From NCBI GenBank assembly GCA_963674745.2, contig CAXXDV010000003.1, positions 960,001 through 1,024,000 of the forward strand: DNA of 64,000 nt. The letters are read 5' to 3'. Shown in pieces: positions 12,268 through 55,682 of this stretch (position 1 is its first letter; every line of letters begins with the position of its first letter). The notes beneath the pieces were generated by a model. That model saw only the letters and a program-made list of their open reading frames with translations. It did not search any database and was not told the origin of the DNA. The stretch comes from Desulfosudaceae bacterium (lineage in GTDB: Bacteria; Desulfobacterota; Desulfobacteria; Desulfobacterales; Desulfosudaceae). Made by a program: the position numbers and the translations under genes.

Positions 12268-13524
12268 CTAGTGACCTTGCCGTAAAAGCGCTTCAAGCAT
12301 TTTGTCCGCCCGGTTTTTTATGGTTTCATGAAGTAATGTGGCCACCGATTCGTTGTATTCTCTAGTCTGTGCCTGAACCTCGCCGAGCTTGTTCAGAACA
12401 CGACGGCAGCTTTCCGCCATTCGTTCCCGTATCACCGGCCAACCCAGTCCGGTCTTTTTGGCCATCTTCTTCCAGTCACCAATCGTGAAGGCATTGACTG
12501 AGTCGCAGCCGCCGATCTTCATCGCGAGATTCCTGGAAAGGTTAGGCCAGGCAAGTGTGCAGACAAGATCATAATAGGGAGACAACCGTCGTTCGCCACC
12601 GGCATACAATAATGCGAAGTTCTTGCCATGCGCATCGGCATTGCCGATTAATACATTGAAAATCAGTCCGTTGATGAAGTCGGGGATATCAAGAACAGGC
12701 GCAGTGGACCAGTCCCGAAGCAGAGAAATGCACTCGCCGAGCGTCGGGCCTCCCTCTGCCTGGTACTTTCGCTCCGGCGGAAATCCCAGTGCCTGGCAGA
12801 AGTCCTCCTGGTGGAGTCGGGTCGTATGGCCGGCTTCATCGGTTGTCCGGTCATATCGTTGAACCAGAAGGCACTGTTTTCTTCCGATCAAACGATATTC
12901 GGTATCGGGTGCGTTCAAGCCGACTGCCTGAGCCAGCGTCATGCAGAAAAGTTCGTTGACGGCCAGTCCGGCAAAGCGATCCGGTTCCGGTTTCAGTATG
13001 TGGGTGCTGGGCGTATCACCAAGAGGCAGACAGATACCGTTCTGATGAACGATAACCGGCAGCTTGTCCTGGGCTCCGGCGAGTGAGAGGCGCAGTCCCT
13101 CCACACCGGCCATTAAGGGCCGATCAGGCAATTCGGCGATGAGCTTTTGCAACTCCGGTTCGGTCAGTTCGCGGTGTCGGGCGTTCTTCGGATCCGTCGG
13201 GGAAATGCCTTCGGGAAGCAGACTGACAGCGCCGGCGCACTCTCCGCCTATTCGCTCCAGCATGGCAAAGTCATTGGTGCGGCTGATTCCAAGGATCTCG
13301 GCTATCTTTTCTCGCGGGCCCTCTTCAGGCAGTATGCCGGCAAAGAAAGGCCTGGCCTTTTTTCCCGGGAACACCTCGCTTTGGAGTGGCAGTGAACGGG
13401 AGAGGGGTATGGCATTCGGCTTTTCAAGCCATGCCTGATCATAGGTGAATTGCAGCAAGCCGCTATCATCTTGTTGGAGGCTTCCGACCCTCTCGTTGTT
13501 CAGATAAACGATCAGGTTATTCAT
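12268..13524 (-). CDS. hipA: HipA-family kinase toxin
   Basis: SLAGAQDK, HILKP, HQEDFCQALG, GNADAHGKN, SPYYD; likely ATG at 13524 overlaps the hipB stop (ATGA). Confidence 0.95.
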   Translation of the reverse strand: MNNLIVYLNNERVGSLQQDDSGLLQFTYDQAWLEKPNAIPLSRSLPLQSEVFPGKKARPFFAGILPEEGPREKIAEILGISRTNDFAMLERIGGECAGAVSLLPEGISPTDPKNARHRELTEPELQKLIAELPDRPLMAGVEGLRLSLAGAQDKLPVIVHQNGICLPLGDTPSTHILKPEPDRFAGLAVNELFCMTLAQAVGLNAPDTEYRLIGRKQCLLVQRYDRTTDEAGHTTRLHQEDFCQALGFPPERKYQAEGGPTLGECISLLRDWSTAPVLDIPDFINGLIFNVLIGNADAHGKNFALLYAGGERRLSPYYDLVCTLAWPNLSRNLAMKIGGCDSVNAFTIGDWKKMAKKTGLGWPVIRERMAESCRRVLNKLGEVQAQTREYNESVATLLHETIKNRADKMLEALLRQGH

Positions 13525-13742
13525 AGCGTTTTGCCTTGGCCGGTAATCTGGAGTTTGAGGCCCAGCGCCTGGAGAACCTGCAGGATTTTTCCGATTTGGC
13601 AAGTCGGCTTGCCGTTTTCAAGATCACTAATGAAGCGCAGACCCGTCCCGCAGGTCAACGCCAGGTCCTTCTGGGTGACTTTCAATTCTCTGCGCCTGGC
13701 ACGAATAGCAGCGCCAAGCTGTTCTGGATTTATAATATTCAT
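13521..13742 (-). CDS. hipB: HipB-like Xre HTH antitoxin
   Basis: TQKDLALTCGTGLRFISDLENGKPT; translationally coupled to hipA. Confidence 0.9.
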   Translation of the reverse strand: MNIINPEQLGAAIRARRRELKVTQKDLALTCGTGLRFISDLENGKPTCQIGKILQVLQALGLKLQITGQGKTL

Positions 13743-13743
13743 G

Positions 13744-13858
13744 TTACCGATCGGGAATATATCGCCCTGTGAAGTGGTTGTCAAGGAAAATATTACCGAA
13801 CGGTAATATAGTTTATTGCATAAACTCTTTTGATTATAAAAATTACCGATCGGGAATA
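13744..13858. promoter_or_regulatory. Three palindromic HipB-type operators
   Basis: TTACCGATCGGGAA (13744), TATTACCGAACGGTAATA (13791), TTACCGATCGGGAA (13843), about 50 bp apart. Confidence 0.8.
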
Positions 13859-13881: not shown

Positions 13882-13979
13882 CATGCAGGCACTTTTATAT
13901 GGACGGCAACCCTGTTCCCATAGGTGTTAAGCAGAGGATGCTGGGGCATGAAAACCGGAAGATCCTCAAGATTTCTTTG
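13882..13979 (+). pseudogene. Tyrosine integrase C-terminal (box II) remnant
   Basis: HAGTF/MDGNPVPIGVKQRMLGHENRK resembles integrase RH..AS.M....V....IQ..LGH; frameshifted and without the catalytic Tyr. Confidence 0.55.
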
Positions 13980-14075
13980 AAAGCAGGTTCCAACGTCTAT
14001 TTTCATTTAGCTGAAACGTCCCCCTGATTAAAGATACCACCATATTGCAATAAAGAGAGCTCCTGTTATCGCTCC

Positions 14076-14822
14076 TTAATGGATTCGATAAAGGTTCTTG
14101 AAAAACGATTTTAATATCCTGGTGGCCGGATCCAGTTGAAGATAAAAGCCTGCAACCCCCTTGTTGTTTTTACGATAGACTTTTGCCTCTTCTTCTGACC
14201 AGAAGAAAACACAAGCGGGTCAGTATTGATTCCTGATACCTTTTGCAAAAACCTTTATATCCTTGATTGGTAAAAATATTAAAGGGTTGCTTGTTTTATC
14301 GGTCACCTGAAAACGCATTGAATCATCTATTTTAATTTTTATGGGTTTTTGAGAATTGGCACAAGCCGATTCCACGGTCACCTGGACTTTATCTTCCATT
14401 AAATGCCCTCGCACGAAGGGCGCTCCAAAGGAGTCTGCCGCTCAAGGCGCCCAGACCTGCTCTCCGGTAGCATAGGTAACTTTGAATTTTGTTTCTTCAA
14501 CAGTAACCGGATAAGCCCAGGTAACATGTCCTGCCTGATTCCTTACGATCCACATCTGCATTTTTCCGATTTTCGCCAATATCTTATTTACCCTGTCTAT
14601 TGGCATGGATAGTTTTTGGGATATATGTTCCGGGGAAACAGGCTGCCTGAGACGGGTAAGTTCAAGAATCAGAAAATCCCTGACCTTGTAATGGCCTCTG
14701 GAATAGATTAATGGAAAGACAAACTTCATGATCAGGCCCTCAACCACACCGTTAAAAACGCAAAGCCAAAAAGGTATGGGGATCATTAATCCGCCGACAC
14801 CGAATAGTGTTTTTGTTTTCAT
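14076..14822 (-). CDS. MerB-like (organomercurial lyase fold) protein with two predicted selenocysteines, 248 aa
   Basis: Track ORFs 14442-14822 and 14220-14414 share a frame; in-frame TGA at 14442-14444 (WAP-U-AAD) and 14220-14222 (NQY-U-PACVFFWSEE); frame ends at TAA 14076; a hairpin follows each TGA. Confidence 0.82.
14186..14222 (-). promoter_or_regulatory. Candidate bacterial SECIS after the second UGA
   Basis: UGA-12 nt-UUCUUCU[GGUC]AGAAGAA perfect stem-loop. Confidence 0.7.
14405..14444 (-). promoter_or_regulatory. Candidate bacterial SECIS after the first UGA
   Basis: UGA-20 nt-GCCCU(U)C[GUGC]GAGGGC hairpin with a bulged U and a G at the loop start. Confidence 0.5.
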
Positions 14823-15113
14823 TAAAGGATCCTCCTTTTTGATGCAATTTTTATCCCGATTTTTCGTAATGGCAGGTGGCTACCTTTTAAAGCCATCATC
14901 CTTCCCAAGCTTAAGTTATAGGCCTGACCTTACACTTTTTCATTACCTCGTATAATCCACCCCAAAAAAAGCAAAATTTATACCATCATGTAAACTAAGT
15001 TTTTACAAAAAGTTATGTTAAAAAAAGCTGAAAGTGTTTATATGCTGACACATTTGTGTTAATATATAAACAAATTTTAGGGATAATCAAAAACAGTCAG
15101 GATCAAACAGGCT

Positions 15114-19874: not shown

Positions 19875-20999
19875 TTACCTGCTGATCATTTCGCGAAAAG
19901 CCTGCAATCGGGTGGCCAGCTGGGCGGAACTGTTCGTGCCGTAATCTTTTTCCAGGTCCAGCACCGGAACACGGTTATCCGCCGAAAGAGACTCCTTTAG
20001 CATTTTGGTAAACCCGGCATAAGGGTCACAGAACTTTACCCGGGCCATAATAAGGCCCTGTATATTCATTTTATCAAGCACACCTGTCAGCAGTTCATAA
20101 TTTCTCTTAAAATCATTCATAACGGACGGGCATGAAATCATTTGGAAGTATCTTTCCGCAACAGCCGAAAGTGGATCGTCGGCATTTTCGTCAATCTCTC
20201 CATGGTAATGCCTGGCGCCAAAACAGATGTTGTCTGCCGCCACAAAAAACCCCTGGCCTTCGATGAATGAAACAAAATCCGGCGAATCACAGGCACCGCC
20301 CAATATCATGACGCGGGGCCGTTGTTCCAGGCCGCTGTCTGCTGCTGACAATTCACCAATCAGGCTTTCCAGATAAACATTGAACGTTTCTTTGCGAGCA
20401 GCCATGCCGGCCCGCACAATCCGCATATATTCCGCACCGCTGATAAGCGGCGGGTCGCTTTTGCGAAATTCGTTCAGGTTAGCCATGAGCGTCCGGGTTT
20501 TGTTGTATATCTTTATTGAGTCCCAAATGTCCGAATCTCTGATCAAAATTGAATATTGATCATGCAGATACTGAATCAGTTTCTTCATGCTGTTGATAAA
20601 CAGGTCCCGCCCGCCGGGAGTATTGGAGTGGTGCATCTCAAAATAATACAAGGGGATCTCCGATTTGTGGTACAGCAGGTCCGCAAGATTCAAATGGTGG
20701 TCACAGGCATTGGCCGCAATTACACCGTCGAAAAAGCCTGTTTGGTCTGTCAGCAGAATTTCCGCCGCAGCCTTGATATACGAACAGGTCATTTTATGGA
20801 GCTCGGCATCCGCGCAGGCCGTATCCGCAACCAAATTGGCGGTTATGCGCAAAGGCAGAATACCGGCGCTGTGGATGATTTCCTCCGGTATACCGGAACA
20901 GGTCAGGCCGACCACCGGTTTGCCACCTTTTTTCCATTGGCGGCTCCTGTCATTGTCCATTTTTTCCGAAAGTTCATTAAATACGGCAAGTGTATTCAT
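19875..20999 (-). CDS. 2-hydroxyacyl-CoA dehydratase family subunit (HgdB/FldC/BcrC-like)
   Basis: PEEIIHSAGILP, CSY, NACD, KFCDP, TRLQAFREM. Confidence 0.9.
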   Translation of the reverse strand: MNTLAVFNELSEKMDNDRSRQWKKGGKPVVGLTCSGIPEEIIHSAGILPLRITANLVADTACADAELHKMTCSYIKAAAEILLTDQTGFFDGVIAANACDHHLNLADLLYHKSEIPLYYFEMHHSNTPGGRDLFINSMKKLIQYLHDQYSILIRDSDIWDSIKIYNKTRTLMANLNEFRKSDPPLISGAEYMRIVRAGMAARKETFNVYLESLIGELSAADSGLEQRPRVMILGGACDSPDFVSFIEGQGFFVAADNICFGARHYHGEIDENADDPLSAVAERYFQMISCPSVMNDFKRNYELLTGVLDKMNIQGLIMARVKFCDPYAGFTKMLKESLSADNRVPVLDLEKDYGTNSSAQLATRLQAFREMISR

Positions 21000-23060: not shown

Positions 23061-24332
23061 CTACTGCATTACTGTTGTGAAAAACGTTTCAACCTGTTCC
23101 CGCACTGACTCCCTGGGCGTGATTCTGTCATCATTGTAATCCAGCTCAAGCAGCAACAGCGGGGCATCATGTTTTTTGCATAAATACCGGGCAACCCCTT
23201 CCTTGCCGCAGATATTGCTGCAGCCCACATGCTGGGTCATGATGATGCAGTCACATTTGAAGTGCCGATATAAATCATGCATATAGTCCAGCATGTCCCT
23301 GGCGCCGAGCCTTAAAAGCGACATGGACAGGTCAAGTCCCTGCCAGGCATAACCTTCCATCATGGTATCCATATCAGTGGTGTCGATGGGCATGATTTTC
23401 GGCCCCATAATGGTATAGGCCACAACCGTTGCCCCGAATTTCTTTTCCATCCATGAAAACAGATCCGGGTCGTGGGCAGGCGGAATATGCGCCCAGAGAA
23501 CACGATGCTTTTCCTCGTATTTCGGCGGGGCATCTTCATCAATGATGCGTTTGATATCGGCCAGCATCTTTTCAAAAAAAACCGTCAGCCGGGGATTTCC
23601 GGCCTGGGTCATATACCCGACATGGGGGACCCGCCTGATGGCCGACCGCTGCGGCGCCGGCATCAGGGTATAGGCATCATGGATTTCCGTCATCAGTTCA
23701 AAGGCCCGGTTGGATTCCTCGACCACCTCGCGGAAGCGGTCGATATCAAACCGTTTCCCGGTGATGTCCTCCAAAAAAGGGATCAGGGTCGTTTTGATTT
23801 GATTGCCGAACCATTGCGCGGCGTCCTTTCCGTCCGCGTTGGTGCTCTCGATATAACACATCCTGTTTTTAAAAATTTTTTCGAGGATCGGATAAGCGGT
23901 CCGGGTGCCGTCGCATGGCATGGTAGTGGTTATATAATGGGCCTCGGCCGGGTACTCCCCGGAAAGCGCCGCGCCCACAAAAAACCGGTCTGTAGAGCAG
24001 AGGTCCGGCGGCAGGCCCGCTTCCTCGGCCAGCGCCAGGAACGCGTGTACAACGCTGATATTGGAACCGGAAAAGATAACGGGCTGGGCTTCCATACATA
24101 AGGGGGCGCAATCAAAGGCATACAGCAGTTGCGGAACAAGGGCGTTTTCAAACAAAACCAACGGTTTGTCCTTACTGTCCCAGGCAGCCAGAAGTTCCTC
24201 AAAAGGGCTGCCAAGGCATTCAATCACTTCCCCGAGAAACGCTTTTGGCCCGCCCTTTGCCTTAAAAATTTGCGCGCCCGGTTTGAATATGAATTCCAGA
24301 AGTTCTCTTGTGTGTTTAAATGCCTCTGACAT
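23061..24332 (-). CDS. 2-hydroxyacyl-CoA dehydratase family subunit (HgdA/FldB/BcrB-like)
   Basis: GLPPDLCS, PCD, ITGKRFD, HVGC, LELDYND, VETFF. Confidence 0.9.
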   Translation of the reverse strand: MSEAFKHTRELLEFIFKPGAQIFKAKGGPKAFLGEVIECLGSPFEELLAAWDSKDKPLVLFENALVPQLLYAFDCAPLCMEAQPVIFSGSNISVVHAFLALAEEAGLPPDLCSTDRFFVGAALSGEYPAEAHYITTTMPCDGTRTAYPILEKIFKNRMCYIESTNADGKDAAQWFGNQIKTTLIPFLEDITGKRFDIDRFREVVEESNRAFELMTEIHDAYTLMPAPQRSAIRRVPHVGYMTQAGNPRLTVFFEKMLADIKRIIDEDAPPKYEEKHRVLWAHIPPAHDPDLFSWMEKKFGATVVAYTIMGPKIMPIDTTDMDTMMEGYAWQGLDLSMSLLRLGARDMLDYMHDLYRHFKCDCIIMTQHVGCSNICGKEGVARYLCKKHDAPLLLLELDYNDDRITPRESVREQVETFFTTVMQ

Positions 24333-55584: not shown

Positions 55585-55682
55585 TGGCGGAAGTGCATGG
55601 GAATCGAACCCACCCGGGACGGTGTTAGCGCCCCACACCGGATTTGAAGTCCGGGAGCATCACCAGAACGCTGCGCACTTCC
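55585..55682 (-). tRNA. selC: tRNA-Sec (anticodon UCA)
   Basis: GGAAG 5' end, CCGGA-CTTCAAA-TCCGG anticodon arm, long variable arm, extended acceptor stem, encoded CCA; 98 nt. Confidence 0.97.

Follow-up and report, generated by a model that had tools for sequence, protein, structure and literature searches.

A putative MerB-fold selenoprotein with in-frame UGA codons at both catalytic cysteine positions in a Desulfosudaceae genome

Can a reading frame that standard gene calling cuts into pieces encode one intact enzyme? The question is raised by a minus-strand locus in a 64,000-nucleotide stretch of the genome of Desulfosudaceae bacterium (assembly GCA_963674745.2, contig CAXXDV010000003.1, positions 960,001 to 1,024,000), which as a whole we call the window and in whose coordinates positions are given. 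A preliminary description of this DNA, made from its letters, had joined two short open reading frames (ORFs) and an uncalled tail into one frame, and had proposed that it encodes a protein similar to the alkylmercury lyase MerB in which selenocysteine (Sec) replaces both active-site cysteines. Here, we studied this gene and its homologues by comparison of sequences, predicted RNA and protein structure, and genomic setting. We hold with good confidence that it encodes a 248-residue cytoplasmic protein of the MerB fold, made by recoded read-through, which would have Sec in place of both metal-binding Cys and would act in carbon-metal protonolysis.

Results

A single frame with two recoded positions

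Translation of window positions 14076-14822 (minus strand) with TGA read as U yields a single open frame of 248 residues that closes with TAA (14076-14078), and the only departures from translation table 11 are the two codons for U127 and U201. There are no other stops and no frameshifts. The frame of the preliminary description is thereby confirmed, as are the contexts it gave for the two codons: GEQVWAP-U-AAD (GEQVWAP-U-AADSFGAPFVRG) for U127, and RNQY-U-PACVFFWSEEEA (GIRNQY-U-PACVFFWSEEEAK) for U201. Under table 11, the same DNA is split into an ORF of 126 amino acids (14442-14822), a second ORF (14220-14414), and a tail. The gene has its own strong Shine-Dalgarno site (Table 1), and the N-terminus that follows from this start aligns with homologues from residue 1.

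Both UGA codons are kept in homologues from at least 11 phyla

Evidence that the two TGA codons are meant to be read comes from homologues. In a set of 106 distinct sequences (duplicates removed) from at least 11 phyla, every member has TGA in the same two columns, which is far beyond chance. Six-frame genome searches that read through stops matched 3 of 60 genomes of relatives, each with two TGA codons, and 28 of 400 genomes in a sample of the phylum; among the latter, 25 matches are strong (E below 1e-35), 24 with two TGA codons and one with three, and the other three, which are weak, probably represent other MerB relatives. A scan of 185,579 species, represented by one genome each, used two peptide patterns, one of which (FF[WR]SEE) overlaps the second of the hairpins described below; it gave 501 pattern matches, 458 of which encode a relative, and the best 80 of these 458 all carry TGA at both columns. 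The six-frame searches, and a protein search with a hidden Markov model (HMM), are free of the bias that this pattern may bring.

In an alignment of 30 rows at 30-39% identity, TGA stands at site 1 in 30/30 and at site 2 in 29/30, the sole exception being a frameshifted second copy within one genome. Few parts of the protein are as well conserved in the family as the segments 3' of each TGA. The HMM search covered a library of 1.84 billion proteins, from which the best 150 cluster representatives were examined. Eight of these have Cys at site 1, and each of the eight ends just 5' of site 2; Cys at site 2 is found in six others, divergent relatives in which site 1 is Ser or Gly. Thus an in-frame UGA is found where some homologues hold Cys and others keep the UGA, which is the pattern by which selenoproteins are recognized, and the homologue comparison that the preliminary description had proposed came out in its favor: TGA is kept at both columns, the segments that follow are strongly conserved, and Cys occurs in some relatives.

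Two side observations concern individual homologues. One has a third in-frame TGA, in its N-terminal segment, where its relatives have Met, Ile, or Leu. A frameshifted, degenerate second copy of the gene occurs in one other genome (homologue labels L019 / L115, on the same contig, and L047).

A conserved hairpin follows each UGA

Bacterial recoding signals would be expected as stem-loops just 3' of each UGA, and the preliminary description had placed a hairpin after each TGA; both are conserved across homologues. Hairpin 1 has a conserved 6-bp stem (GCCCUU-CGUGC-(G/A)AGGGC, +24 to +40) with a loop that begins 26 nt after the UGA, and 97.6% of its cells are paired across 28 distinct sequences. 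In the window copy, it has an energy of -9.3 kcal/mol when folded alone, which is 1.4 kcal/mol above the minimum-energy fold. Hairpin 2 is a conserved 7-bp stem, UUCUUCY-GGUC-RGAAGAA, whose GGUC loop starts 19 nt after the UGA, exactly as had been claimed; in the window copy (UUCUUCU/AGAAGAA) the upper stem extends to 9 bp and is joined by a lower stem of 4 bp. The window copy of hairpin 2 folds at -14.3 kcal/mol (z = -2.09; 5/200 shuffles fold as well). The minimum-energy fold holds the full hairpin 1 in 73 and the full hairpin 2 in 72 of the 106 sequences. A stem-loop with G in its apical loop (CGUGC and GGUC, respectively) is therefore found 3' of each UGA, as in a bacterial selenocysteine insertion sequence (SECIS). 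A search of 13900-15000 with Rfam returned no SECIS or other family, only one chance match to a CRISPR-DR family (E 8.3).

A further signal comes from synonymous sites. For each conserved amino-acid column of the 106 sequences, we took the ratio of the codon entropy to the pooled entropy of the amino acid in question. At invariant residues elsewhere in the protein (W-A-Y-P-V-T, P184, G225, and C153), the two are nearly equal (ratio 0.9-1.0). The ratio drops to 0-0.36 at P-F-V-Q-G, 8-12 codons past the first TGA, where the codons CCC TTC GTG CAA GGG are each used in 95-106 of the 106 sequences, and to 0-0.46 at F-F-W-S-E-E, 5-10 codons past the second TGA, where TTC TTC TGG TCA GAA GAA is fixed. 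These frozen stretches are the two arms of hairpins 1 and 2. Stem-loop nucleotides that are nearly frozen across phyla, synonymous sites included, are what bacterial SECIS elements read by SelB would look like, and PFVQG and FFWSEE would be a clean example of peptide motifs whose very nucleotides are held fixed by a second role in recoding.

The only pair of the hairpin 2 stem that varies is the one that closes the loop, and it varies in step: it is U-A in 91, C-G in 12, U.G in 2, and mismatched in 1 of the 106 sequences, so that 105/106 are pairable at this position. In the 12 sequences, a change of Trp to Arg (UGG to CGG) is paired with a synonymous change of Ser from UCA to UCG. On a tree built without those columns there are at least four switches of state, and 4/4 independent pairs agree.

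The genome encodes the selenocysteine machinery

The preliminary description reported a tRNA-Sec in the window, and ARAGORN locates one there (Table 1). It had further proposed a check for selA, selB, and selD, and all three are present in the genome, which is 99.96% complete, at scores above the curated cut-offs (selB 369.8, selA 607.9, and selD 368.6 bits). The organism thus has tRNA-Sec, SelA, SelB, and SelD. The gene is, on this comparative evidence, a real selenoprotein gene and not a pseudogene, because the TGA codons are kept in 106/106 homologues, synonymous variation over the hairpins is close to zero, and the machinery for Sec is in place. None of the findings that the preliminary description had named as speaking against it, such as unconserved segments after the TGA codons or a genome lacking the sel genes, was obtained.

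The selD gene itself (G000:C1:326061-326981(-)) contains one in-frame TGA, and SelD is therefore a selenoprotein. A second SelB-like gene (G000:C3:1795409-1797292(-)) scores 239.9 bits, just below the selB cut-off of 242.25.

The protein is predicted to have the MerB fold, with both UGA codons at catalytic Cys positions

The Pfam MerB domain (PF03243) matches residues 107-241, and so extends across both TGA codons, with a score of 59.6 bits (cut-off 27); in a six-frame search of the genome with the same domain, the locus again exceeds the cut-off with two TGA codons inside the match. An AlphaFold model built on 29 homologues has a mean predicted local distance difference test (pLDDT) score of 91.7 and a predicted template modeling (pTM) score of 0.88, and its top 11 Foldseek matches in the Protein Data Bank (PDB) are all MerB, with E down to 3.6e-12. 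By domain and predicted fold, the gene is a member of the MerB superfamily. Single-sequence searches (phmmer against PDB sequences, and a word-index search at near lengths) found nothing, and a family profile was needed to see the relationship.

Aligned through that profile with MerB chains in the PDB, U127 corresponds to Cys96, D130 to Asp99, C154 to Cys117, and U201 to Cys159, these equivalences being counted along the alignment to 3f2g, which carries C160S and whose alignment block ends at residue 118. Cys96, Asp99, and Cys159 have been described as essential for MerB catalysis (PMC10114901). The claim that both active-site Cys are replaced by Sec thus agrees with the alignment, in which the two TGA codons fall on the two catalytic Cys and the Asp of the UxxD motif on Asp99. 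Asp130 is present in 105/106 distinct sequences and the Cys154 column is invariant (106/106).

The same Cys begins a CxxC motif (C-A-H-C; profile columns 153 and 156, the protein's own residues 154 and 157) in 85% of the 106 sequences. The window copy has C-A-N-S at this place, and canonical MerB has, in the aligned chain, just the first Cys of the pair. It is speculation that the CxxC takes part in metal hand-off in the members that have it.

The double-Sec family differs from canonical MerB and from SaoL

Curated models place the gene close to, and outside of, the named families. The NCBIfam MerB models NF009710 and NF033555 score 48.4 against 193 and 41.9 against 200 bits, and the SaoL model NF040728 scores 51.2 against 140 bits, all below cut-off. 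All 29 aligned family members give only weak matches to the MerB models (best E 7.2e-19), and no model in NCBIfam release 20 (June 2026) captures the double-Sec family. In terms of sequence, the gene is neither canonical MerB nor SaoL.

MerB (EC 4.99.1.2; plasmid R831b; PDB 3F0O, 3F0P, and 3F2F; MerB2, 5C17) has a catalytic pair of Cys where both positions are here UGA, predicted to be read as Sec, whereas the Asp is kept (D130), so that the chemistry would be analogous with different residues. Sequence identity to MerB is 15-21%. Further, the window protein lacks an equivalent of Cys160, is longer at the N-terminus by about 20-40 residues, and is encoded outside any mer operon, next to hipBA, a PapA-like acyltransferase gene, and a GGDEF gene.

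SaoL, the "selenocysteine-assisted organometallic lyase" found mostly in Firmicutes, is the nearest described relative, and according to the accessible text of Haft & Gwadz (bioRxiv 10.1101/2022.07.06.499078) it too is a selenoprotein with the MerB fold that occurs in anaerobes. Its Sec stands at the position of Cys159, its database entries are likewise shortened, and it is likewise thought to act outside mercury resistance. In the same account, however, the single Sec of SaoL lies in a CU dipeptide and the residue at the Cys96 position is still Cys, where the double-Sec family has Sec at both; the second motif of the latter reads (F/Y)-U-(R/K/P) and lacks the Cys before U (Y-U-P in the window copy); and SaoL marks a conserved nine-gene SAO locus, whereas the double-Sec family has no conserved neighborhood. 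The family fails, as far as its sequences tell, every testable feature that defines SaoL. The preliminary description had stated that MerB-like selenoproteins were already reported, and in SaoL they were; SaoL has a single Sec with Cys at the Cys96 position, and the double-Sec design is therefore not simply the class already reported. Another arrangement occurs in a sister group that matches the same profile at E 1e-42 to 1e-65 and shares the CxxD and flanking motifs, but in which the residue equivalent to Cys96 is Cys and not Sec; it makes up 8 of the best 150 representatives, and the ends of these proteins suggest that a TGA stands at site 2.

In the accessible parts of the 2022 and 2026 selenoproteome reviews, SaoL alone appears under PF03243, with one Sec, and of the 119 families of prokaryotic selenoproteins counted in the 2026 review, the vast majority have a single Sec. 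Supplement file 4 of Peng et al. (2016) lists an "Organic mercuric lyase MerB2" selenoprotein in 17 organisms, with the number and position of Sec unstated. No MerB entry occurs in the GOS 2008 paper and its supplements, and no mention of MerB or SaoL was found in the accessible main text of the BSepDB paper. In the literature and catalogues searched, then, we found no description of a double-Sec MerB family and SaoL as the sole MerB-like selenoprotein described, although an earlier description elsewhere is possible.

Proposed activity and alternative explanations

On the reading that we prefer, SelB would deliver Sec-tRNA at both UGA codons by way of the in-frame SECIS elements, and one full-length protein would result. 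By analogy with the MerB mechanism (PMC10114901), an organometallic compound would then be bound through its metal by the two selenolates, which would weaken its carbon-metal bond, Asp130 would protonate the leaving carbon so that a hydrocarbon is released, and the metal would be left bound between the two Se atoms. Candidate substrates are methylmercury and other organometals or organometalloids. At neutral pH a selenolate is deprotonated, and as a ligand it is softer than a thiolate; in such a site selenolates should favor attack on the metal and hinder release of the product.

Standard ORF calling splits the frame, and most database entries for the family are fragments of about 125 amino acids, as would be the case for a pseudogene, or for two or three unrelated short ORFs, in which the TGA codons are ordinary stops or marks of decay. 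However, the codons stand in identical columns in 106/106 sequences at about 30-40% identity, the segments after them are strongly conserved, the Pfam domain and the predicted fold cover all three pieces, and no further stop or frameshift is present. An alternative genetic code in which TGA means Trp or Gly, not Sec, could be argued from the 32 database proteins that have W at both columns (31/120 in one listing, 1/150 in another), but those proteins were predicted on short metagenome contigs, most likely by gene calling with TGA as Trp. Such a code is also contradicted by the alignment of the two columns with the catalytic Cys and the Cys that relatives hold there, by the conserved hairpin after each TGA, and by a complete Sec machinery that includes a selD with its own in-frame TGA. 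Both of these explanations can, on the comparison of sequences, be considered excluded for practical purposes.

Other explanations accept the selenoprotein and differ in what it does or when it is made. The protein could be a non-lyase on a MerB scaffold, that is, a chaperone that binds soft metals or selenium, a sequestration protein, or a sensor, given that its winged-helix-like N-terminus resembles metal-sensing repressors. We regard this as unlikely: the proton donor of MerB is kept as Asp130 in 105/106 sequences, a point in favor of catalysis, a full-length alignment shows the same arrangement at the N-terminus of MerB itself, and the matches to repressors are at the background level of the aligner. 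It is also conceivable, but quite improbable, that expression is gated by selenium, so that the usual product is the N-terminal piece of 126 residues and the full enzyme is made when selenium is plentiful. As a matter of general knowledge, two UGA codons in series should lower read-through; on the other hand, the N-terminal piece alone has no catalytic residue, and gating would complement rather than replace a double-Sec lyase.

Several points weigh against the proposed double-Sec lyase. MerB is thought to pass Hg(II) straight to MerA, and MerB without MerA has been deemed problematic (PMC8261052); very tight binding of Hg(II) is expected at a bis-selenolate site, and with no MerA above cut-off in the genome (413.3 against 454.45) turnover is left unexplained. 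Catalytic function is read from the predicted fold and the residues, and read-through with Se in the product from comparison. In the window copy, the minimum-energy fold at the first site is unexceptional (z = -0.51) and is not hairpin 1; hairpin 1 of this copy also contains one U.G pair, because a codon is CGA and not CAA. Covariation concerns one pair and about four events, with which significance cannot be reached (sign test p 0.125), and most stem pairs are invariant, and so speak neither for nor against pairing. Finally, the 80 cross-phylum loci were retrieved with patterns of the FF[WR]SEE type, and since this pattern overlaps hairpin 2 the set could favor SECIS-bearing members.

If the proposal is right, no organometallic catalytic center like the bis-selenolate active site has yet been described in enzymes, and the protein would be one of the few bacterial enzymes in which two Sec residues form one active site. 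Apart from MerB, no enzyme is known to cleave Hg-C bonds. How anaerobes without a mer system degrade methylmercury is an acknowledged open question (PMC10114901), as is the handling of the Hg(II) product by organisms that have MerB only (PMC8261052). The family offers a concrete and testable candidate for methylmercury degradation without mer genes. More tentatively, and as a possibility that we would rate below even chances, it may be a mer-independent, selenium-dependent carbon-metal lyase of anoxic habitats, and a candidate anaerobic demethylase for methylmercury or methylated As, Sn, or Pb.

Genomic setting

The gene is monocistronic in the window; its neighbors are hipBA downstream and, upstream and divergent, genes for a PapA5-like acyltransferase and a GGDEF cyclase (coordinates of the main features are given in Table 1).

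Table 1. Features of the locus and of the surrounding window, in window coordinates
Feature	Position	Strand	Basis or remark
Putative double-Sec MerB-like coding sequence, 248 amino acids + TAA	14076..14822	-	translation with TGA=U
Shine-Dalgarno AGGAGG, 8 nt 5' of ATG at 14822	14831..14836	-	read from sequence
UGA codon 127, predicted Sec at MerB Cys96 position; UxxD with Asp130	14442..14444	-	profile alignment, homologues
SECIS-like hairpin 1	14405..14421	-	pairing and frozen codons
Cys154 codon, invariant, MerB Cys117 equivalent	14361..14363	-	profile alignment; 106/106
UGA codon 201, predicted Sec at MerB Cys159 position	14220..14222	-	profile alignment, homologues
SECIS-like hairpin 2	14183..14214	-	fold and frozen codons
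tRNA-Sec, anticodon TCA, 41 kb from gene	55585..55682	-	ARAGORN
hipB-like helix-turn-helix gene	13521-13784	-	downstream of selenoprotein gene, same strand
hipA-type kinase toxin gene	12268-13602	-	preceded by hipB-like gene
Secretory lipase (LIP, PF03583) paralogue, 597 amino acids	5342-7135	-	domain match
Secretory lipase (LIP, PF03583) paralogue, 597 amino acids	7180-8973	-	domain match
Secretory lipase (LIP, PF03583) paralogue, 597 amino acids	17930-19723	-	domain match
HGD-D family gene	19875-20999	-	domain match
HGD-D family gene	23061-24332	-	domain match

Neighbors can point to a substrate where they recur beside homologues, and here they do not. The lipase, acyltransferase, and other genes around the window copy were not recurrent at 20 loci from the phylum or at 80 cross-phylum loci. 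The preliminary description took lipid-related neighbors as a hint of a substrate other than organomercury; these neighbors are real, but because they are not conserved they carry no information on the substrate. Within 6 kb on either side at the 20 phylum loci, the sole repeated neighbor is a MarR-family gene directly upstream (6/20). Within 3 kb at the 80 cross-phylum loci, no neighbor cluster exceeds 6/80, and the largest is a MerR-family regulator. Each of these MerR-family neighbors has a single Cys and lacks the Cys triad of Hg-type MerR, and they therefore provide no link to mercury. A conserved operon was considered and rejected, given maxima of 6/20 and 6/80.

Mercury-resistance genes were likewise sought in the whole genome. 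MerT has no match, the best match to MerA, below its cut-off, lies about 250 kb away, and the best match to Hg-type MerR scores 73.9 against a cut-off of 150.85, so that the absence of merA, merR, and merT reported for the window extends to the genome in these terms. The gene is solitary, and with no MerT and with MerA and Hg-type MerR below cut-off this is not a classical mercury-resistance system. Sao models were absent from the 25 best listed of 183 matching families, and the ABC genes of the window are of the DrrA-like/ABC-2 type; SaoC had no match in the genome, though the SaoC model matched no control genome either. The locus is thus neither a mercury-resistance operon nor an SAO locus.

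A possible association with HgcA was examined through its cap-helix motif. The motif is absent from the source genome; in the phylum it occurs in 13/25 genomes that carry the double-Sec gene and in 95/375 that do not (odds ratio 3.2, Fisher p 0.0085, ignoring relatedness). By family, it is absent in all five carriers of one (f66) and present in 5/6 of another (f85). Because carriers cluster by family and the source genome lacks the motif, the association is a lead at most, and we regard it as a weak hint.

The genome holds a second MerB-family paralogue (G000:C1:1352242-1352601(-); L001:1288-2232) of 314 amino acids, with a Pfam score of 99.5 bits. Its two catalytic Cys are both in place, with Glu for Asp99; it scores below all curated MerB and SaoL cut-offs, and sits between an enoyl-CoA hydratase gene and a PFL-like gene of the glycyl-radical type.

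Of the other genes in the window, hipBA has its own sigma-70-like promoter, matching at 11 of 12 positions (13784-13756). Two of the LIP paralogues are in tandem and the third is 9 kb away. For the HGD-D gene at 19875-20999, the best model is that of the double-cubane-cluster reductase (NF040772), at 192.7 bits against a cut-off of 350; the double-cubane-cluster family has been linked to selenium and to SAO loci in the accessible text of Haft & Gwadz.

Distribution and annotation

The family is widespread in mostly anaerobic bacteria. It is found mostly in Chloroflexota (Anaerolineae) and Thermodesulfobacteriota, which contribute 44 and 11 of the 106 sequences, and it extends to at least 11 named phyla: Myxococcota and Acidobacteriota are represented by 3 sequences each and Nitrospirota, Bacteroidota, Gemmatimonadota, Spirochaetota, Ca. 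Rokuibacteriota, Ca. Binatota, and Ca. Hydrogenedentota by 1 each, and 38 sequences have no phylum label. Nearly all carrier records are metagenome-assembled genomes.

Database names for the family are "hypothetical protein" or variants of "alkylmercury lyase", and 99 of the best 150 cluster representatives end just 5' of site 1. Because gene calls end at the first UGA, surveys of mer genes and of selenoproteomes miss the family. The proteins with W at both columns (P0152-P0189) are, with two exceptions, listed on contigs under 3 kb, and gene callers probably chose a table with TGA as Trp because it gives the longer ORF.

Members of the family also differ at the N-terminus. Residues 1-40 of the window copy (window 14703-14822) are far more hydrophobic (IPIPFWLCVFNGVVEGLIMKFVFPLIY) than the charged, amphipathic consensus VPPxLWEKQIEK, and the same residues have the lowest confidence in the model (pLDDT 71-74). 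The window copy may, in this segment, be a membrane-associating variant.

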